Source: Patescibacteria group bacterium (GTDB lineage: Bacteria; Patescibacteriota; UBA1384; JBBRAU01). From it: a stretch of 63,491 nt of DNA. Below, piece by piece: positions 3,970 to 37,679 of the stretch. Position 1 is the stretch's first letter; the number at the start of each line of letters is the position of its first letter. The translations under genes and the position numbers were made by a program. Below the pieces are notes generated by a model. It ran no database searches. It was not told the origin of the DNA and worked only from the letters and a program-made list of their open reading frames with translations. The stretch is taken from NCBI GenBank assembly GCA_038206475.1, contig JBBRAU010000004.1, positions 1-63,491 on the forward strand, in the 5' to 3' direction.

Positions 3970-4819
3970 CGCTAAGGTTTCTGGTGCTCACGCCTGGTCG
4001 CGACAACCAAATAGTTACCTCTCGACAGGAGCCTGAGTAATTACTGCGTTTGACGATAAGGCGAAGAAATGGGTTGTAGCCATCGTTTAGTATTGCCGTA
4101 CCAGTATCAGTACTGGCTTGGCGATATGTTGGTGGTTCAAACAACGCTAAGCTGGGCCGCCCGCTTTGGGCAGACGCAAAAGCCACAGTTGCTATTGGTG
4201 GCACTAATTGGTTACTGACCGCCGGATCAGTAATAGATTCATCTTTGGCCGGGAAAGCCGACGTGTTGCCGGCGACCGTGCGGAAGTATCCTGACGGTAA
4301 CAAGGCTTGGGTTCGGACATTACGCGGCGTCTGAATATAAATCGTACTCGGCAAGTGGAAGCTTTTGACCTCCGGGAAGTAACCTGAGTCGTCACTTAAA
4401 CTCTGGGGTTGTTGGCTACTTTTGCCGGGGTCGGCTGGCTCTTGCCACTCGCGAATGGAGATGGTGTCCCACTCAGTTGGTGTAGACGTGCTACTCGGAC
4501 CTAATAATAAGACGGTGCCAACATAATGGTGACCGGCATAGCTGAGGGTGGTGTCTTGAATGCCACCATTCACCTGCGATTTATCAGCATCAGTAAACTG
4601 GCTAGGTGCCGAGGCCAAGGCAGAGGCTGAATTGACCGCTTGCTCAATGGTCTGGGCAGCATTGTCTAGTTGTTGTTCGCGCTGCAGCACAGCCAAGCGA
4701 GGCACTGAAGCCGCCAAAAGCCCAGCCATGATGCCCAACACCACTAGCAGTTCAACTAATGTGTAGCCTGGACGCCCCACCTGCGCCTTTCTAATTGACA
4801 ATTTCGCCCAGCACATCAA
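3953..4819 (-). CDS. minor pilin (GspH/FimT-like) with prepilin-type N-terminus
   Basis: N-terminus GRPG|YTLVELLVVLGIMAGLLAA followed by the LDNAAQ helix typical of GspH/FimT-type pseudopilins. Confidence 0.7.
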   Translation of the reverse strand: MMCWAKLSIRKAQVGRPGYTLVELLVVLGIMAGLLAASVPRLAVLQREQQLDNAAQTIEQAVNSASALASAPSQFTDADKSQVNGGIQDTTLSYAGHHYVGTVLLLGPSSTSTPTEWDTISIREWQEPADPGKSSQQPQSLSDDSGYFPEVKSFHLPSTIYIQTPRNVRTQALLPSGYFRTVAGNTSAFPAKDESITDPAVSNQLVPPIATVAFASAQSGRPSLALFEPPTYRQASTDTGTAILNDGYNPFLRLIVKRSNYSGSCREVTIWLSRPGVSTRNLSGGNCV

Positions 4820-5417
4820 AGAAGTGGTCAGAGCACGGTGTAGCGTCTTGACTGGCCTGATTGTCCGCTAGCCGCAACGGCGTACCCAGCCGATAGCCGT
4901 AGGTGCGAGTGCCACTTCCACGCAGATAGGCGCAAGCAGTTTTTTTAGTCTCAAAACCAGTAAACACGCCGGTGGTGGGATAGGCATACGTTTCAAGCTG
5001 CGCAGTTGTCTGGTCCAGCTTGAAATACTGTTCAGCAACTTCTTCGCCTGATCTATCAACTGATTGAACCCACTGCGTAACAGCGTTGCTGAATAGGTAG
5101 TCTTTTTGGTACAAATACTGACCAGACGTGTAGTCCCCTCTGGTCCCCCGGAATGTAGCGTACGGCGGGGTCGGTAGTTGATCAATGTAGCCCCCCGTTT
5201 GCAAATCTGACAGCTGGTCGGGGTATGTCCTGTTTCGGGCAAAATAGTTGTCCAAGGCCCCTTGAATTTTGACAATGTCGGCGATCATTTTCGTTTGCTG
5301 GGCGCGTTTGCGGGCCGAAATGTAGCCGGCTGAAGCCCAAGCCGTGAGCACGGCGATAATGCCCATAACCACCATTAATTCAATGAGGGTGAAACCAAAC
5401 CGGCGACGTGAGAACAT
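4791..5417 (-). CDS. type IV pilin / pseudopilin (PilE/GspG-like)
   Basis: N-terminus RRFG|FTLIELMVVMGIIAVLTAWASAGYISARKRAQ, a canonical pilin N-terminal helix. Confidence 0.75.
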   Translation of the reverse strand: MFSRRRFGFTLIELMVVMGIIAVLTAWASAGYISARKRAQQTKMIADIVKIQGALDNYFARNRTYPDQLSDLQTGGYIDQLPTPPYATFRGTRGDYTSGQYLYQKDYLFSNAVTQWVQSVDRSGEEVAEQYFKLDQTTAQLETYAYPTTGVFTGFETKKTACAYLRGSGTRTYGYRLGTPLRLADNQASQDATPCSDHFFDVLGEIVN

Positions 5418-6771: not shown

Positions 6772-7977
6772 TCATCCGCTAATGTTTTGAGTGGCAGCAA
6801 AGATTGGACCCAAAATAGCAAATACCAGGAAGGCGACACCGGCACCCATGAAAACAATAATGACTGGCTCAATCAATGAGGCAAAGGCCTTGATTTTGGT
6901 ATCCGTCTGCTCCTCATAGAAACGCCCAAGTGTCTCCAGCACATCATCCAGTTTACCGGTTTGCTCGCCGACCAGAATCATTTGGCTGATCAAAATGGGG
7001 AAATCGGGTGTTTCCGAGAGCGGTGTTGACAACGGTACGCCCTTTTCAACCTTGCTGACAGTGTAGAGCAAAATGCGCTGGTAGACGCGGTTGCCAATAG
7101 TATCGGCTGTGAGTTTAATTGCCTCGACAATCGGGATGCCGGAGCGAATTAACAGGGAAAAGGTTTTTAAGAAGTTGGTCATATAAGCGCCCTGCATCAG
7201 TCCACCAATAGGCGGTGTTTTTAAGATAGCGACTGCAAACCAGTTTTTGCCAGTTTCAGTGCGCAGGAATAGCCGAATGGCGGTAGCTAAGACGATGACC
7301 AGGGCCAGAGCCAAGTACCACTGGTCAGTCAAAAAGTGCGACAGCCAAATAAGGAAGTGTGTAGAGATGGGCAGCGCCGTTTTAGTATCGGCGAACAGCG
7401 GGATGAGCTGCGGAATAATTTTTGTCGTCACATAGACACCCATCACCACCATGACAACCAAAATGACGGCCGGATACGCTAAGGCGCCTTTGACCTTGGA
7501 TTGAAAGTTCGTGTCATGCTCCAGTCGGTCAGCCAACGACAGTAGCACTTTCTCTAGCTGGCCAGAGGCCTCGCCAGCCCTAACCAGCGAGATAAAGACT
7601 TTGTCAAAAATTTGATTTTGCCTAGCCAGCGCAGCCGAGAAACTTTGACCACCCTCAAGGTCTCGGATCATCTCTGCAATAGCGGCTTTGAATTTTTTGC
7701 TCTGGACCTGGCGGTCAACAATACGCAGGCCTTGAATAATCGGCACGCCGGCTGAAATCATCGTCGCCAGTTGGCGAGCAAACATGGCCCGATCTTTTAA
7801 GGAGACTTTGCCAAAGGGGTTGAAGTGTGCCAAAATCGAAGCCTTTTTCTCGATGGCCAGTGGCCGCAGTTTGTTGGCGGAGAGTAATTTTTGGGCATCA
7901 GCAATAGTCGACGCTTGTAAAACGCCGCTCAAGGTATTGCCGTATGGATCAAGGGCTTGATAAGAAAAAGTTGGCAC
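6772..7977 (-). CDS. pilC: type IV pilus platform protein PilC (GspF family)
   Basis: 401 aa with the duplicated T2SSF domain architecture and three TM segments. Adjacent to pilT and pilB. Confidence 0.92.
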   Translation of the reverse strand: MPTFSYQALDPYGNTLSGVLQASTIADAQKLLSANKLRPLAIEKKASILAHFNPFGKVSLKDRAMFARQLATMISAGVPIIQGLRIVDRQVQSKKFKAAIAEMIRDLEGGQSFSAALARQNQIFDKVFISLVRAGEASGQLEKVLLSLADRLEHDTNFQSKVKGALAYPAVILVVMVVMGVYVTTKIIPQLIPLFADTKTALPISTHFLIWLSHFLTDQWYLALALVIVLATAIRLFLRTETGKNWFAVAILKTPPIGGLMQGAYMTNFLKTFSLLIRSGIPIVEAIKLTADTIGNRVYQRILLYTVSKVEKGVPLSTPLSETPDFPILISQMILVGEQTGKLDDVLETLGRFYEEQTDTKIKAFASLIEPVIIVFMGAGVAFLVFAILGPIFAATQNISG

Positions 7978-8088
7978 AAAAACCTTTATATATAACTACT
8001 TATTAAGACGGGTGAGTAGTGGTCTCTGAAGGGGGAAGCATCTACCACCGGCAAAAACATCGGCAACAAAAAATTCATGGTTACCATA

Positions 8089-9153
8089 TTAATAAATCAA
8101 ACTCTTTAAAGTGGCTGAATCATTAGCGTGAGACATCGCCTCTTCAAATGTAATGTCGCCCTTGCTTACTAGGTTGGCTAGCACTTTGTCCATGGCAATC
8201 ATCCCTTCTCCATTTGAAGTCGAGATGACGTTGTCGAGTTGGTGTGTTTTGCCCTCACGGATACTCGTCCGTACGGCCGAGTTAGCCAACATCACCTCGG
8301 TAGCCAGTACCCGTCCGCCGTTAATACGCGGCAGTAGTCGCTGCGACATAACGCCCAGCAACACCGCGGCCAGCTGCGTGCGTACTTGCTGTTGCTGATG
8401 TTGAGGGAAGACCGAGATAATGCGATCTGCCGTCTGGGCGGCAGAATTTGTGTGCAAGGTCGACAGTACGAGGTGGCCAGTTTCAGCCACGGTCAGCGCA
8501 GCTTCGATCGTCTCTTGGTCGCGCATTTCACCGATCAACACCACATCTGGGTCTTCTCGCAGGGCGGCCCGCAGGCCGCGACTAAACGTCAGTACATCGG
8601 CGCCCAGTTCGCGTTGGGTGACCATGCCTTGCCTGTGCTCAAAGAGAAACTCGATCGGATCCTCAAGGGTGATGACATTGGCTGAGCGCTCCGACAGAAT
8701 TGCATCAACGATCGAGGCGAGGGTGGTTGATTTACCATGCCCCGTTGGGCCAGTCACGATCACCAACCCTTTGCTCTCGGTAGTGAATTTTTGCACAATT
8801 GGCGGTAAGCCAAGCTCCTGCATATTCCAAATTTTAAGCGGAATCAGGCGGAAAGCGCCAGACAAAGCATTTTTCTCGTGAAAGACGTTGACGCGGAACC
8901 GAATTTGGCCAAAGCCAAAGGAGAAGTCAACATCGCGCTTGGCCTGCAACTCAGCGCGCCGTGCGTCCGACAACAACGGCAGCAGCATTTGCTCAGTCAA
9001 TTGCGGCGTCAGCGTTGCTTCACCTGGAACGGTGTAGAGCTGACCGTCAATACGTAAAACCGGCGGTCGACCGACAGTTACGTGAATATCCGAAGCCCGG
9101 CGCTCCATTGCCATCGTAAATAAAGTGGTTAACGCTGAGTTCAACGTGGCCAT
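8089..9153 (-). CDS. pilT: twitching-motility retraction ATPase PilT
   Basis: 354 aa with Walker A GPTGHGKST, Asp box, Walker B LIGEMRD and His box (TGHLVLSTLHT). Length is typical of PilT. Confidence 0.92.
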   Translation of the reverse strand: MATLNSALTTLFTMAMERRASDIHVTVGRPPVLRIDGQLYTVPGEATLTPQLTEQMLLPLLSDARRAELQAKRDVDFSFGFGQIRFRVNVFHEKNALSGAFRLIPLKIWNMQELGLPPIVQKFTTESKGLVIVTGPTGHGKSTTLASIVDAILSERSANVITLEDPIEFLFEHRQGMVTQRELGADVLTFSRGLRAALREDPDVVLIGEMRDQETIEAALTVAETGHLVLSTLHTNSAAQTADRIISVFPQHQQQQVRTQLAAVLLGVMSQRLLPRINGGRVLATEVMLANSAVRTSIREGKTHQLDNVISTSNGEGMIAMDKVLANLVSKGDITFEEAMSHANDSATLKSLIY

Positions 9154-9223
9154 AATGCCCCATTTCTCATCTTTTTTCGTGCTGATCTTAGTATATCAGA
9201 GGCTAAGCGAAGTGGAACCAACC

Positions 9224-11869
9224 TCATGTTTGAGCCTCACGCAGGACCTCTTCAACCGTGGTGATGCCGGCCAGGGCCTTCAGGTAACCATCCTGTTTCA
9301 TAGTGATCATACCCTCGGCTTGGGCGGTAGCCAAAATTTGATCGGCTGGCTGGTTTTTGTTGGCCAAAGTCTCAATCCCGACAGACATCGGCATCACCTC
9401 GTAAATGCCGATTCGGCCGTGGTAGCCGCCGTTGCAGCTAGCACAACCCTTACCAGCGTAGACTATCAGCTCGGCCGGAATGCGAGCGCGGTCGGCCTCA
9501 TTGCTGGCTGGAATTTTGGCTAGTTCCCGTTGTATATCGGCCAAAATGCCAGGGTCAAGCGGTGCTTCAGTTTTGCAGTCTTGGCAGACTTTACGCACCA
9601 AGCGTTGGCCAATAACGGCGTTAATTGAGGAAGTGATGAGGAAGGCCTCCACGCCCATATCAATTAAGCGCGGCAGCGCACCGGCGGCGTCGTTGGTGTG
9701 CAGTGTGGACAACACTAAGTGGCCGGTTAGCGCGGCCTGGGTAGCATTCTCCGCCGTTTCACGGTCACGAATCTCTCCCACCATAATGATGTTCGGGTCT
9801 TGGCGCATTAAGCTCCTCAGCCCTTCGGCAAAGGTGTAGCCAATCTGCGGGTTCACCTGTGATTGGTTAATGCCAGGGATTTCAAACTCAATCGGATCTT
9901 CTAAGGTGGAAACGTTGACACCTGGCTTAGACAATCCGCCAAGCAGCGCGTAGAGCGTGGTCGATTTACCGGAGCCGGTCGGACCGGTGGCTAAGACAAT
10001 GCCGTACGGCTTAGCGACCGCATGTTGCAATTCAGTCAACGCTCGACCCATAAATCCAAGCTCCGTCACAGTTAAGACTCCCTTGTCTTTATCCAGCAGT
10101 CGCATGACGATTTTCTCCCCGTGGGCGGTCGGTAATATGGAAACACGAATGTCCACTTGACGCTTTTCAAAGTTAACGTCAAAGCGGCCATCTTGTGGCA
10201 GGCGCGTTTCGTCAATTTTTAGACTGGACAGAATTTTGATACGCGAGACAACGGCAGGGTGCATCTCGTGCGGTAGACGCATAATTTCCTGCAGAATGCC
10301 GTCAACACGAAACCGGATGCGCTCGTCGTCATCTTCTGCCTCCAGATGAATATCGGAGGCTTCGAGGTGCAGCGCATAAGAGATAAGGGCGGCAACAATT
10401 TTCGGTACCTGACCCTCAAGGGCAATCTCTTCGAGACTCTCTGGCGCATCAATATCGTGGTCGAGCAGCTGACCGAGGTCGGTGGCAATCTCTTCAACCG
10501 GCGCTTCATTAGTCTTTTGCTTGGCAACTGACTGTATTTTATTATGGTCAAGTTGAAAGTGGACGTTTAAAATTTTCTGACCGTCTTTGCCGGTGACGTA
10601 ACGCTCCATCGAAACCGGCGGCGCGACTGTTACTGGTTCGGCCGACGCCACTTCAGCCTGTGCCGGCGCAACCGTCGCCTGCGGCGTCTCTGCTTCTGGC
10701 CGCGGCGGCACTGTTGGCGGCGGAACGGAGTGCGCCTCAGAAGCTGTCTTTATAATAGTTGGTGGCGGCAGGACTCCGGGTTTTTCAGCATGGAAGAGGT
10801 GGCGTAGGAAATCAAAAATACCCGGACTCGGTTTCATAACATCACTGACCGGCGCTGGTGGTGGTGGGGCCGGACCAAGGGCTGGCGGAGCGGCAATCGC
10901 CAGCACATTCGGGCCTTGGGCTTTGATAATGTCAGCAACGGTTTTGTGACTATCAGCCGGCTGCTCCAGCAGCAGGTCGTATATATTTAAAGTCACGTCT
11001 AAGTCTTCGCGACTGGTTTGGTAGAGGGCGAGCGAGACACCGTTTTTCTCCTCAATTTGACGGATTAAACGGTCAAACGGCCGACTCTTGGCTTGGTCAG
11101 TCGCTACCCGAAAAATCGGCGTGGACCCAAAAATAGTCGGTACTTGTTCGTAGACTACTAGGCGCAATTTTTTGGCGCTCCCCTGGTCAAGACGGGCCAA
11201 CGCCGTCGGGTCAAGGTGGCGATCAAACAAGCGCACCCGACCAACCGGCCGCTGCCACTTATACCAGTTCATCGCCTCTTTCAGTTGCTCTGGTGAGGTA
11301 ATGGTTAACTGAACCGCTACCCCGTGGGCGGCGGCCAAGTCAGCAAAGATGCCCTGATGGTCACCGCGTAGCAGGGCTGGCCTGGCAATGGCTACGGAGA
11401 TGGTTTTACCCTCAGCAGCAAAGGCGATAACTCCATATTTCTCCGCCACGCGGCGGGGAATGATCTCGATCACTTCTTTCGGAATTTCCTGTTGGCCAAC
11501 AGCCACATATGGCAGCTGCCAATAGTAGGCGTAGGCCTGCGCTAGAGTGTCTGACCCGATATAGCGCTTTTTTAGTAAATACTTTTCAATAAGCAGATTC
11601 GGCTGCTGGCTGGCTGGCAGTTTGGCGTCGAGCGCGGCATGCGCCTCTAAAATGTAGCCGTCCGGCATTAGGTGATGTTGAGCAATGATGTCGAGCAGTG
11701 TTGGTGGTGGTGGTGGATCACCCAACAGGTGCTCCTCCGCGTTCGGTGACCCTGGGACAACCGAAACTTCAACTGGAGCGCTTTGCGGCTCTGCCGGAGA
11801 CATTAAATTTGGCTCAACTGAGGCGGGTTGAGCTTGAACAGCGGCAGCAGGCGGAACGGTCTCGGCCAA
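9224..11869 (-). CDS. pilB: type IV pilus assembly ATPase PilB (GspE family) with long N-terminal extension
   Basis: C-terminal about 440 aa is a canonical GspE core: GPTGSGKST, MVGEIRD, TGHLVLSTLHTN, tetracysteine CQDC...CASC. N-terminal about 440 aa holds two T2SSE_N-like segments and Pro/Ala-rich linkers. Confidence 0.9.
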   Translation of the reverse strand: MAETVPPAAAVQAQPASVEPNLMSPAEPQSAPVEVSVVPGSPNAEEHLLGDPPPPPTLLDIIAQHHLMPDGYILEAHAALDAKLPASQQPNLLIEKYLLKKRYIGSDTLAQAYAYYWQLPYVAVGQQEIPKEVIEIIPRRVAEKYGVIAFAAEGKTISVAIARPALLRGDHQGIFADLAAAHGVAVQLTITSPEQLKEAMNWYKWQRPVGRVRLFDRHLDPTALARLDQGSAKKLRLVVYEQVPTIFGSTPIFRVATDQAKSRPFDRLIRQIEEKNGVSLALYQTSREDLDVTLNIYDLLLEQPADSHKTVADIIKAQGPNVLAIAAPPALGPAPPPPAPVSDVMKPSPGIFDFLRHLFHAEKPGVLPPPTIIKTASEAHSVPPPTVPPRPEAETPQATVAPAQAEVASAEPVTVAPPVSMERYVTGKDGQKILNVHFQLDHNKIQSVAKQKTNEAPVEEIATDLGQLLDHDIDAPESLEEIALEGQVPKIVAALISYALHLEASDIHLEAEDDDERIRFRVDGILQEIMRLPHEMHPAVVSRIKILSSLKIDETRLPQDGRFDVNFEKRQVDIRVSILPTAHGEKIVMRLLDKDKGVLTVTELGFMGRALTELQHAVAKPYGIVLATGPTGSGKSTTLYALLGGLSKPGVNVSTLEDPIEFEIPGINQSQVNPQIGYTFAEGLRSLMRQDPNIIMVGEIRDRETAENATQAALTGHLVLSTLHTNDAAGALPRLIDMGVEAFLITSSINAVIGQRLVRKVCQDCKTEAPLDPGILADIQRELAKIPASNEADRARIPAELIVYAGKGCASCNGGYHGRIGIYEVMPMSVGIETLANKNQPADQILATAQAEGMITMKQDGYLKALAGITTVEEVLREAQT

Positions 11870-11877
11870 CTGCCTCC

Positions 11878-12144
11878 TTACTGGCTGCTAAACGGATTAT
11901 CTCGCGAGAGGGATCCGGCTGGCAGACTGATGGGCCAGTCTACATTGGCTTGGTACTGCGGCAGTTGCTTAAACACCGGGCTCGTGAGCGCGTTCAGCGC
12001 AGCAACGTCCACCGGCGGTTTGGCAGTAGCGACAACCTTAGTCAAACTGGTGGTGATGAACAGGTAGAGAAAGCCGCCAACGATGACGAAACTAGCAATG
12101 AATGCTAGGAGAGTAGAGCTGTGGAGTGAGCTTTTCATTTTCAT
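11878..12144 (-). CDS. small single-pass membrane protein in the pilus operon
   Basis: 88 aa with an N-terminal TM helix (LLAFIASFVIVGGFLYLFI). Lies between the pilO-like gene and pilB. No family recognised. Confidence 0.5.
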   Translation of the reverse strand: MKMKSSLHSSTLLAFIASFVIVGGFLYLFITTSLTKVVATAKPPVDVAALNALTSPVFKQLPQYQANVDWPISLPAGSLSRDNPFSSQ

Positions 12145-12153
12145 AGCGCTTCC

Positions 12154-12750
12154 TTACGGTACGATATTATTGGCTGCAGGGGCAGGCTGAGCCGTTAGGC
12201 TGGATGTTGCTGCTGGCGTGCCGGCATCGCTGGCCAAGATCGTTGTCCCCTGCAACTGAACAGTGATGGCCCCGTTGTTTTCTTGACTGCTCCAATTAAT
12301 AGAGGTGGTGGTGATCAGACGTAAGTTGAGGTACAGCGCATCAATGTAGTTACGAATCGAAGAAAGCGGGCCTGTCACACTAACCGAAACCGGCACAGAC
12401 TTACCGCTGGTCTGCAAACTTGGCGCAAAATTAGCCATTGTGACGCCGGCGCGGTCAGCCAAACCTTGCATCTGCAGCAACATAATCGGGATGCCGTCGC
12501 TCGCGGACGGTACGGCAATATCCAGTGTACTCAGGTCTTTCTTTTTGCCGTCCAGTTGGTTGGCGGCAGTGTCTAGCTGCGTCACAGCCGTTTGCTTAAC
12601 TGTCTTTTCGGCGATTTTTTGCACCTCGTCGGTTTTGACTTGCATATACGCCGGCAACTGCCAGTGCCAAAAGGCGTAAAGGCAACCGAAACTGGCCACA
12701 TACAGCAGCAGACCGATAATCATTGGCGTGGATGAATTTTTGGGCATCAT
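12154..12750 (-). CDS. pilO: PilO-like pilus alignment protein
   Basis: 198 aa with an N-terminal TM, a coiled segment, then a ferredoxin-like C-terminal region (IPIMLLQMQGLADRAGVTMANF). 4-nt overlap with the upstream pilN-like gene. Confidence 0.6.
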   Translation of the reverse strand: MMPKNSSTPMIIGLLLYVASFGCLYAFWHWQLPAYMQVKTDEVQKIAEKTVKQTAVTQLDTAANQLDGKKKDLSTLDIAVPSASDGIPIMLLQMQGLADRAGVTMANFAPSLQTSGKSVPVSVSVTGPLSSIRNYIDALYLNLRLITTTSINWSSQENNGAITVQLQGTTILASDAGTPAATSSLTAQPAPAANNIVP

Positions 12751-13814
12751 GGGGCAACCAATCCGCTACTCGTAGGTAACGAATTTGTCGCTGGCGAAGA
12801 ACTAGCAGATGGGACGGCTGATTGACCTGAACAATAATCGCTCTGGCTAAGCGGCGGTAACTCAAATAAACTTTTTGAGGGTGTAACGGTGAAGCTGACG
12901 GCGCTGGAGGTTGACGCACTAGTCGTTTGGCCGCTTGCGCCTGATTGTGTATCGGTACTGGGTGGTGAAACGTTGGCAAACGTCACACCAGAAAACACTG
13001 GTCGTGGCGTACCGAGTGTATAGCCGGCCTGATTTAAGTTGCTGGTCAGCACGATGTTGCTACCCGGCGCAAGCGTGCTGTCAGTTGGCTTACTATAGCG
13101 AATAATGGCTTTACAGCCGAGCATCAGGCTGGCAGTCGCATCTTGGATGTTTGTGGCTGTGAATGACTGTTTAATGAAGGCTAAATCAGAGCTGGAAAGC
13201 AGATGTGGCGTCTTGGTTTGAGTCAACTCAACTTCTTGGTAGTCCCTAAGCGCCAGGTAAAAGTAGGCAATATCTTTGAGAGTTTTGGTTTTGGCGTCCA
13301 CTTTAACGGTACTCGAGGTCTGATCAATGCTCAACGTGGTGAGCTGAACCGTTTTTGGTACGCGAGCCGAAACCGCCGTTAAAGCTCGGCCCAGGTAAGG
13401 ACGGTTCTGCGCTCCCTGAAAAATAGTCAACTTTTCAGCGATTTGGTTGAGCCGCGTAGCAGTTTGACTTAGACGTGGCGTAGCCAGCTTGATGTTCAGT
13501 CCCGCGATAGTTTCGTTGAGACCGATCAGGTTATTTTTTTTATTGACGGTAACGCCAAAGGTGAGCAAACAAACCACCGCTGAGATAACAAGAGTGACTG
13601 TAGCGATCAGTAGCACGTGGTCATTGTTTTTTGGCGTTGAGTAAAACACGGCCTGAGGCTGGCCTGAGGCTGGCGGCGCACCCGACGCGCTACTATTACC
13701 CAAAACGGGCGACGATATCGATGCGGGAGCTTGAAGCGATGGCGGAATCAAACCAGCTGGCGTAGCGCCAACAGATGGTGTCAAAACTGGCCTCGGTAGT
13801 CCCGTTTCAGCCAT
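12747..13814 (-). CDS. PilN-like membrane protein with Ser/Pro-rich extensions
   Basis: 355 aa with a low-complexity N-terminus, one TM (LLIATVTLVISAVVCLLTFGV), a coiled region and a Ser/Thr-rich tail. Position immediately upstream of pilO fits PilN. Confidence 0.5.
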   Translation of the reverse strand: MAETGLPRPVLTPSVGATPAGLIPPSLQAPASISSPVLGNSSASGAPPASGQPQAVFYSTPKNNDHVLLIATVTLVISAVVCLLTFGVTVNKKNNLIGLNETIAGLNIKLATPRLSQTATRLNQIAEKLTIFQGAQNRPYLGRALTAVSARVPKTVQLTTLSIDQTSSTVKVDAKTKTLKDIAYFYLALRDYQEVELTQTKTPHLLSSSDLAFIKQSFTATNIQDATASLMLGCKAIIRYSKPTDSTLAPGSNIVLTSNLNQAGYTLGTPRPVFSGVTFANVSPPSTDTQSGASGQTTSASTSSAVSFTVTPSKSLFELPPLSQSDYCSGQSAVPSASSSPATNSLPTSSGLVAP

Positions 13815-13873
13815 TTGCCTCCTCCTTTACATGTCTCAATTAGTATAACTGGCCTGATATGGGTTGTATATGG

Positions 13874-18123: not shown

Positions 18124-18681
18124 TTGGAAATCTATCCGAACCAACAGCGGTTCAGTAAAAAGTTCGTCTCCGACTACGGCAAACTCGGCAAACTGGTTGA
18201 AGGTCTCAAGTCCGTAGACCTGGTCGTCGTCATGACCATCGGCAGTTGGGACGGACTCCACGTCGGACACACTCGCTATCTCGAAGAGGCCAAAGCGAGG
18301 GGTGACTGTTTGATTGTTGGTGTCGACACCGACCGAGCAATCGAACTGTACAAAGAACCAGGCCGGCCACTTGTCGCTGAAGAATTCCGGATAGAAATGC
18401 TAGCCAATCTGGAGTGCGTTGACTACATCACGCTGGTGGGTGATGTCGATGACCAAGGCAACTGGCAATACGGTCTTGTCAAGGCGACGCGCCCGAACAT
18501 CTTCATCGTACAGGGCTATCCGCCAGAACAAGTCGCCCAGCTCCAAACGTACTGCGACCAGGTCATCGAACTGCCCCGCCAGGAATTGGCCTTTTCGACG
18601 ACAAGAATGTTCCGCAAGGCCGGCCAGGCGTATTTGGCAAAAATACTGCGCGCCGCTCAAGAGGAGGATAGCGGTGACTAA
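18124..18681 (+). CDS. cytidylyltransferase-fold nucleotidyltransferase (RfaE domain II / TagD-like)
   Basis: TTG start preceded by AAAGGAAA. The motif GSWDGLHVGHTRYLEEAKARGDCLIVGVDTD...GRPL fits the HxGH nucleotidyltransferase family. Confidence 0.7.
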   Translation: MEIYPNQQRFSKKFVSDYGKLGKLVEGLKSVDLVVVMTIGSWDGLHVGHTRYLEEAKARGDCLIVGVDTDRAIELYKEPGRPLVAEEFRIEMLANLECVDYITLVGDVDDQGNWQYGLVKATRPNIFIVQGYPPEQVAQLQTYCDQVIELPRQELAFSTTRMFRKAGQAYLAKILRAAQEEDSGD

Positions 18682-19510
18682 CCTGCTTGCCCACATCCCC
18701 GTGCTCAGCCAGGCTCAGCTGGGTTTGTTTGTCCGTCTCAACGGTCGGGTAGATCGGCTGCTACTCATCGGCAGCTCACTCCTCCAGCAGTTCCAGCCGA
18801 AGTGGCAGGAGATCCGGGCGATTGCTCCGTCTGAAATGGCCGACATCCTCCGTCGCCTCAACTACTTTCCGGTGGTTGAGGTGATAGAGACAACATACGC
18901 ACCAGACCTAGCCGGCCAAGAGCTGGTTGCCGCCCGCGATGCACTAACTGTGGCGGTACTCAACCACTTCTACCCACAGCACCTGGTAACCTGGGAGACT
19001 GCTTTCCTTCGTTGGCACACCGACAACGTCAAAAGCAGTCTGCCGGCCGTCTTCGATCGAGAGTCACACGACACCTTTGATCAAGACGTGGTGAGGCAGG
19101 CCATTCAGGTTGCAGCACTCAGTTCCGACTGGTGGCGTCATGTCGGCTGTGTGGTCGTGAAGGGGGGTGAGAACATCCTGAAAGGGTACAATCACCACCT
19201 ACCATCAGACTACACGCCATACATAGACGGCAGCCCTCGAGACTTCGTGCCTCCTGGCCAAGACCGCATGATCGATTCGTCAATCCACGCTGAGAAATCG
19301 GTCATCGCCGTTGCGGCACGGTACGGCATCGCCTTAGAAGGCAGCAGCTTCTACGTGTCAGTCTTCCCCTGCCCCGTCTGCGCGCGCGACATGATCACCG
19401 CCGGTGTTCACCGGTGCTTCTTTCCGTCAGGCAACGCCTGGCTGGGCACCGATGAAGCCTTCCGAACCGCAGGTGTGGAAATGATCTACGTACCACTCAA
19501 AAACCCCTAG
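18674..19510 (+). CDS. deoxycytidylate (dCMP)/cytidine deaminase-family protein with about 140-aa N-terminal extension
   Basis: C-terminal zinc motifs HAE...PCPVC. Proposed GTG start at 18674 is preceded by GAGGAGGA and overlaps the upstream stop (GTGACTAA). The track ORF start at 18419 lies inside the upstream gene in another frame. Confidence 0.7.
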   Translation: MTNLLAHIPVLSQAQLGLFVRLNGRVDRLLLIGSSLLQQFQPKWQEIRAIAPSEMADILRRLNYFPVVEVIETTYAPDLAGQELVAARDALTVAVLNHFYPQHLVTWETAFLRWHTDNVKSSLPAVFDRESHDTFDQDVVRQAIQVAALSSDWWRHVGCVVVKGGENILKGYNHHLPSDYTPYIDGSPRDFVPPGQDRMIDSSIHAEKSVIAVAARYGIALEGSSFYVSVFPCPVCARDMITAGVHRCFFPSGNAWLGTDEAFRTAGVEMIYVPLKNP

Positions 19511-19533: not shown

Positions 19534-20529
19534 TTAACCGATTGGAAAGGTGACCGGGATAGCGCGACCGGTGGTCGCGTCAAGCTCTGGCTCAATGAGA
19601 TGAAAGTGTAGATGCCTGATGGTCGCCCCAGTCCGTGTTGTGTCGCCGAAGCGCAACGCGAACCCGCCACCAGCCAGGCTGAACTCACGAATCGCCCACC
19701 CGACCAGCTCGCGAACAGAAGCCAGGTCTTCCACGGTCAACTCGCAGAAGGTCTCTTTATGCTCTTCGCCAATGATCAACAGCTGGACCCGAGCGTTTGG
19801 GTAGGGCTCGTTAATCCGGGTGATGAACCACTTGCCCTCGTGACGCAGGATCGGGTGCGGATGGTAGATAAAGCTGCCTGGGCAGAAGGGACAGTGGCCG
19901 GCGGCGAGGATCTTGGCCATAGTCTCTCGGTAGCTCACGCTTCGGACATACGTCGGATCAACGAAAGCGCCCGTCCCTCCCGGACGCTTTTGGTCAAGCG
20001 TGGTGAAGGTGTAGGCATAGCGGTGACGCTGGTCAGCCAGATGCTCCTCTCGGTGCACCACCTGCCAATCAGCCGCATCGAAGGCGGGGAAGTACGCATC
20101 TCCAGGCGGCTGAGCGTGCACCTCTGTCAGGTAGAGCCGTTCGGCCCGCGGTAGCGCTTGGGTGTATATTTCCGCGCCACCGGCAATCATCACCTCTATC
20201 TTCTCAGCTGAATTAGCCGGCAAGCCACGCAGAGCGTCGTCGAGTGAGCCGGCAAGCCGGCACGATGTAGTGCTACTCATCTGCCGCAAAGCTTGATTGG
20301 CTTGTTCCGAGAGCAGACCGGCTCGACTGAGGATAATCGTTTGACGATTTGGCAGCAGACCACCAAGCCGGTCAGTGATCGACTCGAATGTTCTGCGGCC
20401 CATAATAACCGTCTTGCCGATCGTTAACTCCTTGAAGTGGCGAAGATCGGCCGGGAGATGCCATGGAATCTTCCCCTGGTCCCCGATCACACGGTTATCC
20501 GCCACCGCTGCAATAATGGCAATGTTCAT
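19534..20529 (-). CDS. folA: dihydrofolate reductase fused to a C-terminal HIT-family domain
   Basis: N-terminal about 190 aa aligns with DHFR (MNIAIIAAVADNRVIGDQGKIPWHLPADLRHFKELTIGKTVIMGRRTFESI). C-terminal about 135 aa has the HCPFC and HLHFHLI histidine-triad motifs. Start moved to the ATG at 20529 (MNIAI). Confidence 0.8.
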   Translation of the reverse strand: MNIAIIAAVADNRVIGDQGKIPWHLPADLRHFKELTIGKTVIMGRRTFESITDRLGGLLPNRQTIILSRAGLLSEQANQALRQMSSTTSCRLAGSLDDALRGLPANSAEKIEVMIAGGAEIYTQALPRAERLYLTEVHAQPPGDAYFPAFDAADWQVVHREEHLADQRHRYAYTFTTLDQKRPGGTGAFVDPTYVRSVSYRETMAKILAAGHCPFCPGSFIYHPHPILRHEGKWFITRINEPYPNARVQLLIIGEEHKETFCELTVEDLASVRELVGWAIREFSLAGGGFALRFGDTTRTGATIRHLHFHLIEPELDATTGRAIPVTFPIG

Positions 20530-20585
20530 GGCGCCCTCTCTGTGCTTGAAAAAATAGGGAGCGACTTGCACTCCCCGTAGAGGTG

Positions 20586-21530
20586 TTAGTATCCCACCGG
20601 AATGCCTTTGATCAGCGGGTGCGGATCGTACCCCTCCAGGCTGAAATCTTCCAGCTTGAAGGCGAACAGATTCGTTATCTCGGGATTGAGCGTGACGGTC
20701 GGCAGTGGCCTCGGCTCACGGGACAGGATCTCCTTGGCGAAAGGGACATGCGGCAGGTAGATGTGCGTATCGGAAGTGTGGTACACCACCTCCCTCGCCC
20801 GCAGACCAGTGACTTGGGCCACCATCAGCAGAAGCAGTGCGTACTCGGCGATATCGAACGGGAGACCGACCACAGCGTCGGCACTCCGCTGGAAGACATC
20901 GACGCTGAGTTCGCCTTGGGCGTGGAAGAACTTGAAGAAGCAGTGGCAGGGTGCGATAAATACCCGGTCACTGTCCAGCGGGTTCCAGGCCGTCACGACC
21001 AAGCGCCGCGAGTCGGGGTTGCGCCTCAGCTCTTCGACCAAGACCTTGATCTGGTCCACTGGCCGTGCAACCTCGATTAAATGCTGCTCGATGAGGTGCG
21101 CGATGTCATCTTTAGTCCAGTCCGGGGTGATCGTGTCAGCAATCAGCCGGGCGATTTGCTCGGGTGTACTGCGCAGTCCAGCGTTGAAGCTGCGCCACTG
21201 GGCGCCGTAAATGCGTCCCAGCTCACCGACCGGAAGCGGCGGCGAGACGAGGTTGCTGGTTTTTTCGTCAGCCCACTGATCCCAAATCTTGGTCGGATAG
21301 ATTGCTTTGAGATCAGCCAGGTTGGTACTGCCAGACAGAAACCAGAGCAGCTCGGCGCACAAGGGCTTAAACGAGCTTTTGAAGCTGCGGGTGGTACTGA
21401 GCGGAAAGCCGTCCTGGAGGTTGAACCGCATGGTTTGGCCAAGGGTGGCGAGGTTGCCCATCTGTTGCGGATCAGACTTGGGCTTGCCCTCACTGAGCAC
21501 GCGCTCAATGAGATTAAGGTACTGCTGCAT
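20586..21530 (-). CDS. thyA: thymidylate synthase (ThyA) family enzyme with atypical active site (Asp at the invariant Asn position)
   Basis: End-to-end ThyA similarity: AELLWF, IWDQWAD, IYGAQWR, DSRRLVVTAWNP, IAPCH, FQRSADAVVGLPFDIAEYALL, and an about 50-aa insert as in L. casei-type TS. See findings for the deviations. Confidence 0.85.
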   Translation of the reverse strand: MQQYLNLIERVLSEGKPKSDPQQMGNLATLGQTMRFNLQDGFPLSTTRSFKSSFKPLCAELLWFLSGSTNLADLKAIYPTKIWDQWADEKTSNLVSPPLPVGELGRIYGAQWRSFNAGLRSTPEQIARLIADTITPDWTKDDIAHLIEQHLIEVARPVDQIKVLVEELRRNPDSRRLVVTAWNPLDSDRVFIAPCHCFFKFFHAQGELSVDVFQRSADAVVGLPFDIAEYALLLLMVAQVTGLRAREVVYHTSDTHIYLPHVPFAKEILSREPRPLPTVTLNPEITNLFAFKLEDFSLEGYDPHPLIKGIPVGY

Positions 21531-26756: not shown

Positions 26757-26830
26757 TGGCAGGCCCTGAGCGAATCGAACGCCCGACCGTGGTTTTGGAG
26801 ACCACTGTTTTGCCACTAAACTAAGGGCCC
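26757..26830 (-). tRNA. trnW: tRNA-Trp (anticodon CCA), CCA end encoded
   Basis: Cloverleaf read by hand: GGGCCCT/AGGGCCT acceptor, D arm GTTT..AAAC, anticodon stem GTGGT/ACCAC with loop CTCCAAA, T arm GGGCG TTCGATT CGCTC, discriminator G plus CCA. 74 nt. Confidence 0.9.
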
Positions 26831-26894
26831 GCACTTCATTCGGCCCTTTTTAGTCGCTTACGCGCCTAATAGGGGCCCGCACTTCATTTGGCCC
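26825..26894 (-). repeat. 48-nt-period duplication of the tRNA-Trp 5' end plus leader hairpin
   Basis: gggcccgcacttcattcggccc (26825-26846) and gggcccgcacttcatttggccc (26873-26894) match at 21 of 22 positions. The first copy includes nt 1-6 of the tRNA. Confidence 0.8.
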
Positions 26895-27004
26895 TTGCCA
26901 CTCACTACATGCTTATGATAAGGACTACGCGTACACAGTAGCATATTTTAGCTATTTCTGACATCAAAATGCCGGTGGTAACCGGCATTTTCCCGCTTTA
27001 AACC

Positions 27005-27199
27005 TTAGCGCTTTTGCGCTTGTGGTTTAGTGTTCGGCATTTTTTTCTCGTCGTGCTTGGTTAGCGCGTGATCGTGTTTACAGTACTTATCGCGGGAGAG
27101 TTTACCTTCCACGTTCCTTGTCTTGGGGACAAAGTAGTTGGTGCTGTTACACGTTGCGCAAACAAGCATGACGAGCGTGGCGCCTTTACCTTTAGCCAT
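27005..27199 (-). CDS. rpmG: 50S ribosomal protein L33
   Basis: MAKGKGATLVMLVCATCNSTNYFVPKTRN...KYCKHDHALTKH matches the L33 pattern. SD AAGGAG. Embedded in the tRNA cluster, as in many bacteria. Confidence 0.85.
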   Translation of the reverse strand: MAKGKGATLVMLVCATCNSTNYFVPKTRNVEGKLSRDKYCKHDHALTKHDEKKMPNTKPQAQKR

Positions 27200-27233
27200 A
27201 TAGCTCCTTGCTGCTTCTAAACATAAATAACGA

Positions 27234-27309
27234 TGGAGCTGAAGACGGGGATCAAACCCGTGACCTCGCCCTTACCAAGGGCGTGCTCTATCAACTGAGC
27301 TACTTCAGC
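27234..27309 (-). tRNA. trnT: tRNA-Thr (anticodon GGT), CCA end encoded
   Basis: GCTGAAG TA GCTC AGTTGATA GAGC A CGCCC TTGGTAA GGGCG AGGTC ACGGG TTTGATC CCCGT CTTCAGC T CCA. 76 nt. Confidence 0.9.
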
Positions 27310-27469
27310 GAACGCAGTGAGCTGAGGCAAGGTTCTGACGCAACGCGGCAGGTTCTTACTTCAGCGAACGCAGTGAGCTGAGGCAAGGTTCTGCTCTGCA
27401 AGAGCAGGTTCTTACTTCAGCACGAATGAAATGAGTGCGAAAGAAACGTTCTCATGCAGCGCATGAGGT
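27301..27469 (-). repeat. tandem array (period 56 nt, 3 units) reiterating the tRNA-Thr(GGT) 5' end with structured spacers
   Basis: 27301-27337 and 27357-27393 are identical at 37 of 37 positions (tacttcagcgaacgcagtgagctgaggcaaggttctg). A third, diverged unit starts at 27413. Each unit carries a 7-bp stem / 3-nt loop hairpin at 27335-51, 27391-407 and 27451-67, each with a different stem sequence. Confidence 0.85.
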
Positions 27470-27525
27470 GGTTATTCAGTCTGTATAAGGTCACGAGCTC
27501 CGCTTATCAAATGAGCTACTCACCC
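27470..27525 (-). pseudogene. decayed tRNA 5' half (tRNA-like fragment)
   Basis: The minus strand reads GGGTGAGTAGCTCATTTGATAAGCGGAGC. It shares GTAGCTCA(G/T)TTGATA with tRNA-Thr(GGT), but no anticodon arm, T arm or 3' acceptor strand follows. Confidence 0.4.
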
Positions 27526-27573
27526 TCTCCTTTGTACGGCATTTTAACCTTTTTGTCGAGAATCGCTTATGTT

Positions 27574-27593
27574 TGGTGGGCCGGGGAAGAACC
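27574..27593 (-). repeat. partial second copy of the tRNA-Tyr 3' end
   Basis: tggtgggccggg at 27574-27585 is identical to 27666-27677 (the complement of tRNA-Tyr nt 75-86). It then reads gaagaacc versus taggattcgaacc in the real gene. Confidence 0.7.
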
Positions 27594-27631
27594 TCTTGCT
27601 TCACTCGAGAACCTTGCTAGTCTGCACAGAA

Positions 27632-27662
27632 GAAAATACCCGAGCTTGGCTCGGGTATTTTC
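27632..27662 (-). terminator. intrinsic terminator after tRNA-Tyr
   Basis: 14-bp perfect stem gaaaatacccgagc/gctcgggtattttc with a 3-nt loop, beginning 4 nt after the tRNA-Tyr 3' end. T-rich 3' side on the minus strand. Confidence 0.7.
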
Positions 27663-27665
27663 TTC

Positions 27666-27751
27666 TGGTGGGCCGGGTAGGATTCGAACCTACGAAGCCG
27701 AATGGCAACAGATTTACAGTCTGCTCTCGTTGACCACTTGAGTACCGACCC
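27666..27751 (-). tRNA. trnY: tRNA-Tyr (anticodon GTA), long variable arm, CCA encoded
   Basis: GGGTCGG...GACTGTAAATC...long variable arm TGCCATTCGGCT...GGTTCGAATCC...CCGGCCCACCA. 86 nt, a class II tRNA as expected for bacterial Tyr. Confidence 0.9.
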
Positions 27752-27762
27752 TTAACATGTTC

Positions 27763-27838
27763 TGGAGCCGCCTCGCGGATTTGAACCGCGGACCTTTTCT
27801 TTACGAAAGAACTGCTCTACCACTGAGCTAAGGCGGCC
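27763..27838 (-). tRNA. trnT: tRNA-Thr (anticodon CGT), CCA encoded
   Basis: GGCCGCC TTA GCTC AGTGGTA GAGC A GTTCT TTCGTAA AGAAA AGGTC CGCGG TTCAAAT CCGCG AGGCGGC T CCA. 76 nt, 11 nt upstream of tRNA-Tyr. Confidence 0.9.
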
Positions 27839-32100: not shown

Positions 32101-32176
32101 TGGTCGGGGTGGTGAGACTTGAACTCACGACCACCGGACCCCCAGCCCGGTGCGCTACCAACTGCGCCACACCCCG
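32101..32176 (-). tRNA. trnP: tRNA-Pro (anticodon GGG), CCA encoded
   Basis: CGGGGTG TG GCGC AGTTGGTA GCGC A CCGGG CTGGGGG TCCGG TGGTC GTGAG TTCAAGT CTCAC CACCCCG A CCA. 76 nt. Confidence 0.9.
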
Positions 32177-37366: not shown

Positions 37367-37678
37367 ATGCAAGAAACTGATGTAACCAGCGCCCGCGGCC
37401 TAGGCCGACACGGATTTTTGGTGCTGCTAGCAGCCGTAGTGCTGCTGGTGGGCGCCCCATTAGTGCGGGCGGATGATTCACCGCCAGCTATTCCAGGTGC
37501 CGAAACAACCACCGCAACCAGCCCAGCGGCGACCGATACCACTACGCAGGCCGCAACCACTACCACTACGACAACGTCGGCCCCAGTCACTGGGCCAGGC
37601 TCGGTTATCGCCGTCTCTCTGGCTGGCGGTCTGCTCATGATGATTTTCCGCCGCATTGCCACCACGAGCAAGGAGTAA
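37367..37678 (+). CDS. small secreted Thr-rich protein with C-terminal sorting-signal-like tail (APVTG + TM + RR)
   Basis: ATG at 37367 is preceded by AGGAGGAGGAG. It has a signal peptide (FLVLLAAVVLLVGAPLVRA), a T/A/P-rich stalk, then SAPVTGPGSVIAVSLAGGLLMMIFRRIATTSKE. Confidence 0.6.
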   Translation: MQETDVTSARGLGRHGFLVLLAAVVLLVGAPLVRADDSPPAIPGAETTTATSPAATDTTTQAATTTTTTTSAPVTGPGSVIAVSLAGGLLMMIFRRIATTSKE

Positions 37679-37679
37679 G

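Follow-up and report, generated by a model that had tools for sequence, protein, structure and literature searches.

Thymidylate synthesis by methylation of dUMP is treated as universal for cells that bear ThyA, and to our knowledge the Asn-to-Asp switch has been described only in engineered mutants and in the enzymes with which phages build modified DNA. As cited in PMC8670742, this exchange is an established switch from dUMP to dCMP (Liu & Santi 1992; Hardy & Nalivaika 1992) and turns the thymidylate synthases (TS) of L. casei and E. coli into dCMP methylases, which supports the statement of an earlier note on this DNA that such mutants accept dCMP; the complex of L. casei N229D with dCMP is PDB 1NJC. 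At the specificity position, Asp is present in all of the natural TS homologs that are specific for cytosine (PMC5175136). Moreover, phage TS homologs with Asp177 (E. coli numbering) were shown to make 5-methyl-dCMP, and five of seven deaminase-flanked ones, together with the Xp12 enzyme, gave 5mdC (bioRxiv 10.1101/2024.12.05.627091). The authors of that study concluded that 5-methyl-dC nucleotides are turned into thymidine nucleotides by the phage deaminases; the deaminase mSCD-B5, the sole tested one of the phage systems that is selective for 5mC, acts on triphosphates and not on 5mdCMP. The product type is tracked by the residue at the E. coli L143 position together with D169 (bioRxiv 10.1101/2025.06.16.659550). 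In phage TS homologs that modify cytosine, moreover, position 147 is one of the two differential positions that MetaGPA ranked highest (PMC8670742). We read a residue other than His at this position as a mark of the Xp12/PaMx74-type dCMP C5-methyltransferase. In PaMx74, where the gene order is thyA(Asp)-cd-frd, the TS homolog (gp52) has Pro at position 147 and retains Arg21.

The thyA-like gene and its active-site residues

We analyzed a thyA-like gene in a stretch of 63,491 nt from a Patescibacteria group bacterium of Parcubacteria-like type, here referred to as the window (Table 1). The ORF begins with ATG, with a GAAAGGA Shine-Dalgarno sequence 5' of it. The homology to ThyA along the whole length, claimed earlier, was borne out: the protein matched Pfam PF00303 with E=1.2e-83 (280.8 bits, cutoff 24.3) and passed TIGR03284 (NCBIfam) with 279 bits against a cutoff of 108, while its AF2 model (pLDDT 82) gave a TM of 0.90 to E. 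coli TS in Foldseek. By profile and fold it is a bona fide ThyA. Its identity is 41–56% to bacterial ThyA, with 41–52% to canonical ThyA, and 28% to PaMx74 gp52, which places it outside the phage dCMP C5-methyltransferase clade.

Residues were mapped by phmmer alignment against the PDB, with E. coli TS as the reference. The window motif GLPFDIAEY pairs with E. coli GLPFNIASY, and KSDPQQMGN pairs with KNDRTGTGT; Asn177 thus corresponds to Asp226 and Arg21 to Pro21, as the earlier note had stated. In other words, the Asn that selects dUMP and excludes dCMP is replaced by Asp, and of the four phosphate-binding arginines R175, R176 and R215 are kept while the fourth is Pro. The remaining catalytic residues, from E60 to Y258, are all present as had been claimed, including the set for reductive methyl transfer (C195-H196, E60, Y108, W83, D218 and I192) as well as W86, R175/R176, Q214-R215-S216, H256 and Y258. 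The C-terminus is kept, too.

Table 1. Features of the thyA-like gene and its neighbours in the window
Feature	Position	Strand	Remark
thyA-like gene, 314 aa	20586..21530	(-)	Patescibacteria-type ThyA with Pro21, Asp226 and Glu229
codon CCG, Pro21	21468..21470	(-)	position of phosphate-binding Arg21
35-aa insertion, residues 117–151	21078..21182	(-)	window protein only; two predicted helices
codon GCC, Ala181	20988..20990	(-)	Ala132 in E. coli; varies together with residue 226
codon GAT, Asp226	20853..20855	(-)	equivalent to Asn177 in E. coli and Asn229 in L. casei
codon GAG, Glu229	20844..20846	(-)	E. coli Ser180; Glu in 53/53 Asp-type sequences
codon GCA, Ala231	20838..20840	(-)	Ala182 in E. 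coli; varies together with residue 226
codon TAC, Tyr250	20781..20783	(-)	Trp201 in E. coli; varies together with residue 226
DHFR fused to HIT-like domain (CPFCP...HLHFHLI)	19534..20571	(-)	directly downstream of thyA
long-form dCMP deaminase, 278 aa	18674..19510	(+)	GTG start after GAGGAGGA
HxGH nucleotidyltransferase (CTP_transf_like, HldC/TagD-like)	18124..18681	(+)	8-nt overlap with deaminase start

From Ile192 at the E. coli L143 position, D218, W83, Y108, E60, the C-terminus and the linkage to DHFR, which is conserved across the clade, we predict reductive methylation as the product type, rather than hydroxymethylation or hydroxylation. This agrees with the earlier preference for methylation, D169 being kept. 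Hydroxymethylases yield THF rather than DHF. The Asp at the specificity position is shared with T4 gp42, MilA and BcmA, and the window enzyme might, like these, hydroxymethylate dCMP (or CMP) to 5-hydroxymethyl-(d)CMP; yet the residue at the L143 position is hydrophobic and not acidic, a DHFR gene is tightly linked, the deoxy-type pair Arg176 and Ser216 stands in place of the ribose-type residues, and the identity to true ThyA is 41–52%, so that we consider such an enzyme very improbable.

Asp226 across the Patescibacteria clade

The window ThyA groups within a Patescibacteria (CPR) clade of ThyAs, and the earlier claim that all thymidylate synthases have Asn did not hold there: Asp is found at position 226 in 53 of the 148 clade sequences, as well as at the Asn177 position in 5 of the 122 50%-identity representatives with a parsable motif. 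Sporadic Asp-type sequences also occur outside the clade. The Asp of the window protein is hence not a one-off, and both residues about which the earlier note had asked are shared by relatives. The supposed coupling of Arg21 loss to Asp was not found, as Pro21 (in a DPQxxGN loop) is near-universal in the clade, Asn-type members included.

Glu229 accompanies Asp226 in every Asp-type sequence; among the 116 clade members with this Glu, the other 63 have Asn. Asp arose at least five times in the clade (Fitch count of 14 on an NJ tree), always on the Glu229 background. Three further positions differ between the two types: position 181 is Ala with Asp in 50/53 and Ser with Asn in 50/63, position 231 is Ala with Asp in 51/53 and Ser with Asn in 43/63, and position 250 is Tyr with Asp in 38/53 and His with Asn in 61/63. 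The co-variation gave Fisher p=3e-19 for position 181 and p=5e-18 for position 250, values that overstate the significance because related sequences were counted as independent; the pattern at both positions is seen again where Asp arose independently, and also where it reverted once (P0051). Both GAT and GAC are used as the Asp226 codon among the Asp-type relatives. Judging from these recurrent origins, the constant Glu229, the co-variation and the use of both codons, Asp226 is a selectively maintained state and not drift or error. We infer from co-variation and helix geometry that positions 181, 229, 231 and 250 lie close to Asp226.

The exact window protein is a singleton on one contig, as might be expected if a single codon had been misread or misassembled or if the gene were decaying. 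Such an artefact is extremely improbable, for the reading frame is intact, the set of catalytic residues is full, and the Asp is conserved in a further 52 sequences, in which its codon varies synonymously. An assembly error in the GAT codon is itself unlikely, because the window protein also has the Asp-associated A181, A231 and Y250, versus S, S and H in P0002, its nearest Asn-type relative. A phage origin of the window thyA was rejected, since the best phage tblastn matches (at most 45% identical, and called thymidylate synthase wherever the record was annotated) did not come closer to it than canonical bacterial ThyAs did in the protein search.

The constancy of Glu229 also bears on what the enzyme may do. 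As Glu229 lies one helical turn from Asp226, it could keep Asp226 protonated through carboxyl-carboxylate pairing, so that Asp226 would accept N3-H and donate to O4 of dUMP like Asn, with positions 181, 231 and 250 merely tuning the pair. The protein would then be an ordinary or dual-specificity TS that methylates dUMP, which we regard as the main alternative to the dCMP-first route proposed below, and as less probable than it. Asp never occurs without Glu229, and the other first-shell residues are canonical, His196 (E. coli H147) among them. Against this, the Asn-to-Asp exchange on its own switches specificity in two unrelated TS scaffolds that keep His147, as cited in PMC8670742. The clade, moreover, stably keeps both Asp and Asn, each with residues that change in concert and with repeated origins, suggesting two functional states rather than neutral interchange, and one Asp-type sub-lineage (P0063, P0415 and P0416) went further towards the phage dCMP-methylase signature, His147 to Pro, where the window protein keeps His196.

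The gene module and a proposed dCMP-first route to thymidylate

All 15 loci examined contain the same five-gene module of ThyA, DHFR, HIT-like protein, long dCMP deaminase and HxGH nucleotidyltransferase. These loci, taken from exact-protein look-ups and, for L001, L093 and L094, from contig scans with the clade alignments, comprise eight Asp-type and seven Asn-type ones, with the deaminase in every one. In the window, the real start of the DHFR-HIT gene is probably the ATG at 20529, and the HIT-like domain has a weak HIT/DcpS_C resemblance. The long deaminase consists of an N-terminal domain of ~135 aa, for which there was no Pfam match and no significant match in a PDB profile search, and a deaminase domain whose best match among solved structures is the T4 dCMP deaminase. 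Neither a second TS nor a ThyX motif was found across the 63 kb of the window or in the sequence that flanks the Asp-type loci.

A dCMP-first synthesis of thymidylate is possible in these bacteria because Asp recurs, is selectively kept, and always stands beside DHFR and a dCMP deaminase. In this proposal, to which we give about even chances on the sequence evidence, dCMP would be methylated to 5-methyl-dCMP and then deaminated to dTMP in a cellular organism. ThyA would serve as the TS component of a conserved Patescibacteria thymidylate module; its Asp226 form would take dCMP instead of dUMP and make 5-methyl-dCMP by a reductive, DHF-producing methyl transfer from CH2-THF, the co-encoded long deaminase would turn 5-methyl-dCMP into dTMP, with DHFR recycling the DHF. 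The classical order, deamination before methylation, would thus be reversed; the pathway would still end in dTMP and would not pass through dUMP. The residues, the clade, the recurrent and selectively kept Asp and the constant gene module are observed; we infer that the substrate is switched, that the deaminase accepts 5-methyl-dCMP and that there is a benefit in avoiding dUMP. The earlier note had proposed that the enzyme may make 5-methyl-dCMP or 5-hydroxymethyl-dCMP; the context argues for dTMP as the end product rather than a modified cytosine nucleotide as a goal in itself, as the gene lies in a thymidylate module beside a dCMP deaminase and Asn-type relatives share that exact module. Since the module is identical in Asp- and Asn-type loci, it must have one and the same output in both, and going from Asn to Asp in a single step would be viable only if the shared deaminase handles the methylated product.

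Several points count against the dCMP-first route. First, the window enzyme keeps His147 and has only 28% identity to the validated phage dCMP methylases. Second, the deaminases have no residue that partitions cleanly with the ThyA Asn/Asp state in 13 paired loci; this, together with the Asn-type relatives that presumably use dUMP from the same deaminase in an identical module, favours a dUMP-methylating enzyme, as does the pairing with Glu229 that could make Asp226 mimic Asn. Third, by analogy, the 5mC-selective phage deaminase mentioned above uses triphosphates. The exchange of His147 for Pro in P0063, P0415 and P0416 counts in favour of the route, since it falls on a top differential position of phage cytosine-modifying TS homologs. 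A dUTPase gene adjoins the module in 2/7 Asn-type and 0/8 Asp-type loci, a difference that is suggestive and not significant.

The trio of Asp177 TS homolog, dCMP-family deaminase and DHFR is also that of 5mC phages, and the HIT-like and HxGH proteins could involve dCTP handling. 5-Methyl-dCMP might therefore be phosphorylated and incorporated, with genomic cytosine partly or wholly replaced by 5-methylcytosine before replication and dTTP drawn from the same pool. We know of no report of such pre-replicative replacement in a cellular organism. Here the module has no component specific to the Asp type, being gene-for-gene identical in Asn-type relatives; a MazG/PRA-PH-type dCTPase and an extra dNMP kinase are absent from the Asp-type loci; and GC content and CpG ratios, taken as a genome-wide 5mC footprint, are not depressed in them (0.42–0.55, versus 0.42–0.52 in Asn-type loci). 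A genome-wide 5mC role is accordingly unlikely, and we give this reading little credence; were it true, phage-style replacement of cytosine at the nucleotide level would for the first time be known from cellular organisms.

A large group of minimal-genome cells, the Patescibacteria, thus carries the dCMP-type residue in its chromosomal ThyA, the sole TS gene in the stretches covered around the individual Asp-type loci. If the switch is confirmed, cellular life would include a dUMP-free, step-swapped dTMP route, which would bear on uracil misincorporation and on whether Dut and Ung are needed, and a natural pathway would have been re-ordered by a single residue, with Glu229 permissive and the changes at 181 and 250 adaptive. 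Automated annotation would then call for caution, as it gives every one of these proteins the name thymidylate synthase. Should the switch not be confirmed, the clade would show a TS that uses Asp for dUMP, and the textbook role of Asn177 would be revised.

Comparison with known systems

The window enzyme shares with canonical ThyA (E. coli / L. casei, EC 2.1.1.45) the fold, the catalytic Cys-His, the hydrophobic residue at 143, the DHFR linkage and E58, W80/W83, Y94, R126/R127, R166, S167, D169, H207 and Y209. It differs by Asn177 to Asp, Arg21 to Pro, Ser180 to Glu and Trp201 to Tyr, and by the addition of the 35-aa insertion after residue 116 and the fixed five-gene module. The engineered N229D (L. 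casei) and N177D (E. coli) enzymes have the same substitution, the kept His147 and the reductive methylation chemistry; unlike them, the window enzyme occurs naturally and is kept by selection, shows second-shell co-variation (181, 229, 231 and 250) and has a partner deaminase.

T4 gp42 and MilA/BcmA likewise combine the TS fold with Asp at the specificity position, but they are far more distant in sequence and have neither hydride transfer nor DHFR coupling. In gp42 the L143 position is acidic, in contrast to Ile192, and in MilA/BcmA the ribose-type Lys/Ala replace Arg127' and Ser167, which are Arg176 and Ser216 in the window. The Xp12 / PaMx74 dCMP C5-methyltransferases resemble the window enzyme in Asp177 and the hydrophobic 143 (D226 and I192), and in a neighbourhood of TS homolog, dCMP-family deaminase and DHFR. 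Nevertheless, PaMx74 gp52 has Pro in place of His147 and Arg21 where the window has His196 and Pro21, and the deaminase of PaMx74, at 153 aa, is short beside the 278-aa one of the window. The phage system serves a 5mC genome, whereas the window module belongs to a cellular chromosome and is shared with Asn-type relatives.

Residues and fold of the window ThyA

The product of the thyA-like gene in the window (here referred to as window ThyA, whose numbering is used unless E. coli is named) matches the Pfam family Thymidylat_synt over its full length (E=1.2e-83) and exceeds the TIGR03284 equivalog cutoff. Its AlphaFold2 model has a mean pLDDT of 82 and a TM of 0.90 against E. coli thymidylate synthase (TS). 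In a phmmer search of all PDB chains, E. coli ThyA was aligned in two blocks, split by an insertion specific to window ThyA, which is placed in the loop around E. coli residues 101-107 and predicted as two helices (pLDDT about 61-81). In the same alignment GLPFDIAEY lies over E. coli GLPFNIASY and KSDPQQMGN over KNDRTGTGT. This confirmed the two substitutions claimed in an earlier note, namely Asp226 at the position of Asn177 and Pro21 at that of Arg21, and the other catalytic residues listed there were all found as well. Moreover, Ile192 (E. coli L143) and Asp218 (E. coli D169), at the positions that correlate with product type, predict methylation. A hydroxymethylase role, which we consider very improbable, conflicts with Ile192, with the linkage to DHFR and with the 41-52% identity of window ThyA to true ThyA.

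Coordinates of features in the window and in other contigs carrying related ThyAs (L numbers)
Contig	Feature	Position	Strand	Remark
window	type IV pilus/T2SS ATPase and platform genes	6772-11869	minus	
window	HxGH nucleotidyltransferase	18124-18681	plus	closest to HldC/TagD-type cytidylyl/adenylyltransferases
window	long-form dCMP deaminase	18674-19510	plus	GTG start behind GAGGAGGA
window	DHFR-HIT fusion	19534-20571	minus	after thyA
window	thyA	20586-21530	minus	314 aa; ATG start; upstream ribosome-binding site GAAAGGA
window	Asp226 codon (GAT)	complement of 20853-20855	minus	E. coli Asn177 position; PDB alignment
window	35-aa insertion, ThyA residues 117-151	21078-21182	minus	window protein only
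window	tRNA cluster, four genes (Trp, Thr, Tyr, Thr)	26757-27837	minus	
window	tRNA-Pro	32101-32176		fifth tRNA gene
window	dockerin-domain protein	37656-40361	plus	901 aa
L001	DHFR-HIT fusion	10829-11836		
L088	DHFR-HIT fusion	10822-11748		
L173	DHFR-HIT fusion	4180-5163		
L173	dUTPase/DCD-family gene	2080-2502	minus	
L094	dUTPase/DCD-family gene	13412-13837	plus	
L174	TS-like ORF region	9640-13328	minus	

Distribution and upkeep of Asp226

The exact sequence of window ThyA was a singleton in the protein search. Its closest relatives, 275 aa long and about 56% identical, come without exception from Patescibacteria, with the annotations Minisyncoccia, Paceibacterota, Jorgensen-, Sung-, Wolfe-, Colwell- and Azambacteria. 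Among 148 aligned sequences, including four canonical outgroups, position 226 is Asp in 53 (Asp-type) and Asn in 95 (Asn-type). The Asp is thus shared with relatives in this Patescibacteria clade and, contrary to the earlier claim, is not unique; Pro21 also deserves less weight than it was given, since the DPQxxGN loop at the Arg21 position occurs in nearly all members and is a clade trait. On a distance-based neighbour-joining tree, built with the key columns left out, Asp appears in one large group and several separate lineages (P0060/P0412/P0415, P0065, P0042/P0446, P0071/P0072/L001 and the window protein). Fitch parsimony on this tree gave 14 changes at position 226, and we take at least five origins of Asp as a conservative figure.

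Glu229 (E. coli Ser180) is present in all 53 Asp-type sequences, while Asn is found with either Glu or Ser. This strict coupling, with Glu229 one helical turn away, and the retained His196 fit the main rival reading, in which Asp226 is held protonated by Glu229 and binds dUMP like Asn, giving an ordinary or dual-specificity TS; we regard it as possible but rather unlikely. Within the Glu229 background (53 Asp-type and 63 Asn-type sequences), three more positions co-vary: Ala at 181 (E. coli A132) in 50/53 Asp-type versus Ser in 50/63 Asn-type, Ala at 231 (E. coli A182) in 51/53 versus Ser in 43/63, and Tyr at 250 (E. coli W201) in 38/53 versus His in 61/63. The Fisher p values of 3e-19 (position 181) and 5e-18 (position 250) ignore phylogeny and so overstate significance. 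The pattern is seen again, however, where Asp arose independently (P0001, P0065 and P0071/72), and in the reverse case P0051, where an Asn nested among Asp sequences carries His250. Window ThyA has A181, A231 and Y250, as against S, S and H in its nearest Asn relative (P0002), which argues against an erroneous GAT codon; with this co-varying signature, a sequencing artefact is scarcely credible. In addition, Asp-type relatives use GAT or GAC, even across two contigs with an identical protein (L081 and L082), so the Asp has been conserved through synonymous change. Judged from these alignments, the Asp state is kept by selection.

Host DNA and the gene module

Five tRNA genes mark the window as cellular DNA, together with genes for penicillin-binding proteins, RecJ, the type IV pilus ATPase and platform, and a glycyl-tRNA synthetase. 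This synthetase shares 75% identity with a protein from Candidatus Moraniibacteriota, and its named matches are all Patescibacteria/Parcubacteria. The GC content is 54.6%. The pilus genes, the dockerin-domain protein and the tRNAs are typical Patescibacteria chromosomal content.

Exact-protein look-ups and an HMM scan of fetched loci revealed an invariant module of ThyA, DHFR, a HIT-like protein (CPFCP...HxHxHLI, weakly HIT/DcpS_C), a long dCMP deaminase (about 275-283 aa) and an HxGH nucleotidyltransferase (about 180 aa), often adjoined by SHMT, FolD, thymidylate kinase or HD nucleotidases. It is present in eight distinct Asp-type loci spanning all five independent Asp lineages (the window, L001, L081, L082, L085, L176, L179 and L180) and in seven Asn-type loci (L088, whose contig stops short of the nucleotidyltransferase position, L090, L092, L093, L094, L173 and L174). 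In the window, thyA and the DHFR-HIT fusion are convergent with the deaminase gene. The same fusion recurs in three other loci, and DHFR and the HIT-like protein are adjacent separate genes in the rest; the recurrence implies a functional link of the HIT-like protein, a putative nucleotide hydrolase or transferase, to the thymidylate cycle.

With its GTG start at 18674, the deaminase shows the 363-aa mechanical ORF (18419-19510) to be over-extended. The best solved relative of its catalytic domain is T4 dCMP deaminase (1VQ2, E=1.6e-10), and the N-terminal domain of about 135 aa, conserved across the clade (PVLHxGY...FLRWDEKNV), has no Pfam match and no PDB sequence match. The nucleotidyltransferase is always paired with the deaminase; in the window it lies 5' of it with an 8-nt overlap. 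A supply of dCMP from dCTP by this enzyme and the HIT-like protein is speculative.

No ThyX motif or second TS gene was found in the window. A dUTPase/DCD-family gene adjoins the module in two Asn-type and none of the eight Asp-type loci, numbers too small to be significant. The Asn-type contig L174 has a second, very divergent TS-like ORF (311 aa) about 7 kb from the module; with its neighbours, two QueC-like genes and the genes for a Ham1-like NTP pyrophosphatase and an AAA_18 kinase, it may form a nucleotide-modification cluster.

Proposed route and known dCMP-type enzymes

Since the Asn- and Asp-type modules are identical and their genes belong to thymidylate synthesis and the folate cycle, both types almost certainly deliver dTMP as their physiological product, and the modified cytosine nucleotide implied as end product in the earlier note needs to be revised to dTMP. 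A phage-style 5mC genome is very improbable, the Asp-type loci having no accessory gene of their own (a dCTPase or an extra kinase, for example) and no compositional trace. Part of the probability falls to readings other than those named here, such as another substrate or role. The object of interest is larger than the earlier note described: a thymidylate module found throughout Patescibacteria, in which ThyA switches back and forth between an Asn and an Asp state.

For a ThyA with a selected dCMP-specifying residue that still feeds dTMP, the simplest way is a swap of steps, to which we give about an even chance. In the Asn type, the deaminase would convert dCMP to dUMP and ThyA would then form dTMP; in the Asp type, ThyA would first methylate dCMP to 5-methyl-dCMP, the deaminase would yield dTMP, and the linked DHFR would recycle DHF. 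Classical dCMP deaminases accept the 5-methyl substrate. If the module deaminase does so, one A-to-G transition would swap the routes with output kept, which would explain the recurrent origins of Asp. That positions 181, 231 and 250 change in concert and that each state is stable suggests that each route was then optimised. A possible gain of the Asp route is that it has no dUMP/dUTP pool.

The dCMP substrate and reductive methylation put forward from the sequence are reasonable, and natural precedents now exist. With Asp in place of Asn, the TS of L. casei and that of E. coli methylate dCMP instead of dUMP (Liu & Santi 1992, Hardy & Nalivaika 1992, as cited in PMC8670742), and an N229D-dCMP complex is in the PDB (1NJC). 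Asp occurs naturally at this position in T4 dCMP hydroxymethylase, MilA and BcmA (PMC5175136). In phage metagenomes, TS positions 177 and 147 discriminate best between cytosine-modified and unmodified contigs (PMC8670742). According to a 2024 preprint (10.1101/2024.12.05.627091), a TS homolog adjoins 70% of the dCMP-deaminase genes found on phage contigs with modified cytosine; seven pairs were taken forward, all with Asp177 in the TS, and 5-methyl-deoxycytidine was made in vivo by five of these seven enzymes and by that of Xp12. Its authors concluded that the role of the phage deaminases is to provide thymidine nucleotides, with 5-methyl-dC nucleotides as the source. Use of a 5-methyl substrate by the module deaminase would fit this role, although the sole purified phage enzyme was active in vitro on the triphosphate (5mdCTP) and not on the monophosphate (5mdCMP). 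As for the product, a hydrophobic residue at L143 is associated with methyl, an acidic one with hydroxymethyl, and D169N with 5-hydroxy (10.1101/2025.06.16.659550, 2025 preprint). In the literature searched, no paper links Patescibacteria, thymidylate synthase and dCMP.

Phage PaMx74 has the gene order hydrolase-thyA-cd...frd. Its ThyA homolog shares Asp177 with window ThyA at only 28% identity; it has Pro at His147 and keeps Arg21, whereas window ThyA has His196 and Pro21. The same His147-to-Pro change (PCP for PCH) occurs in an Asp-type sub-lineage of the clade with three sequences, P0063, P0415 and P0416.
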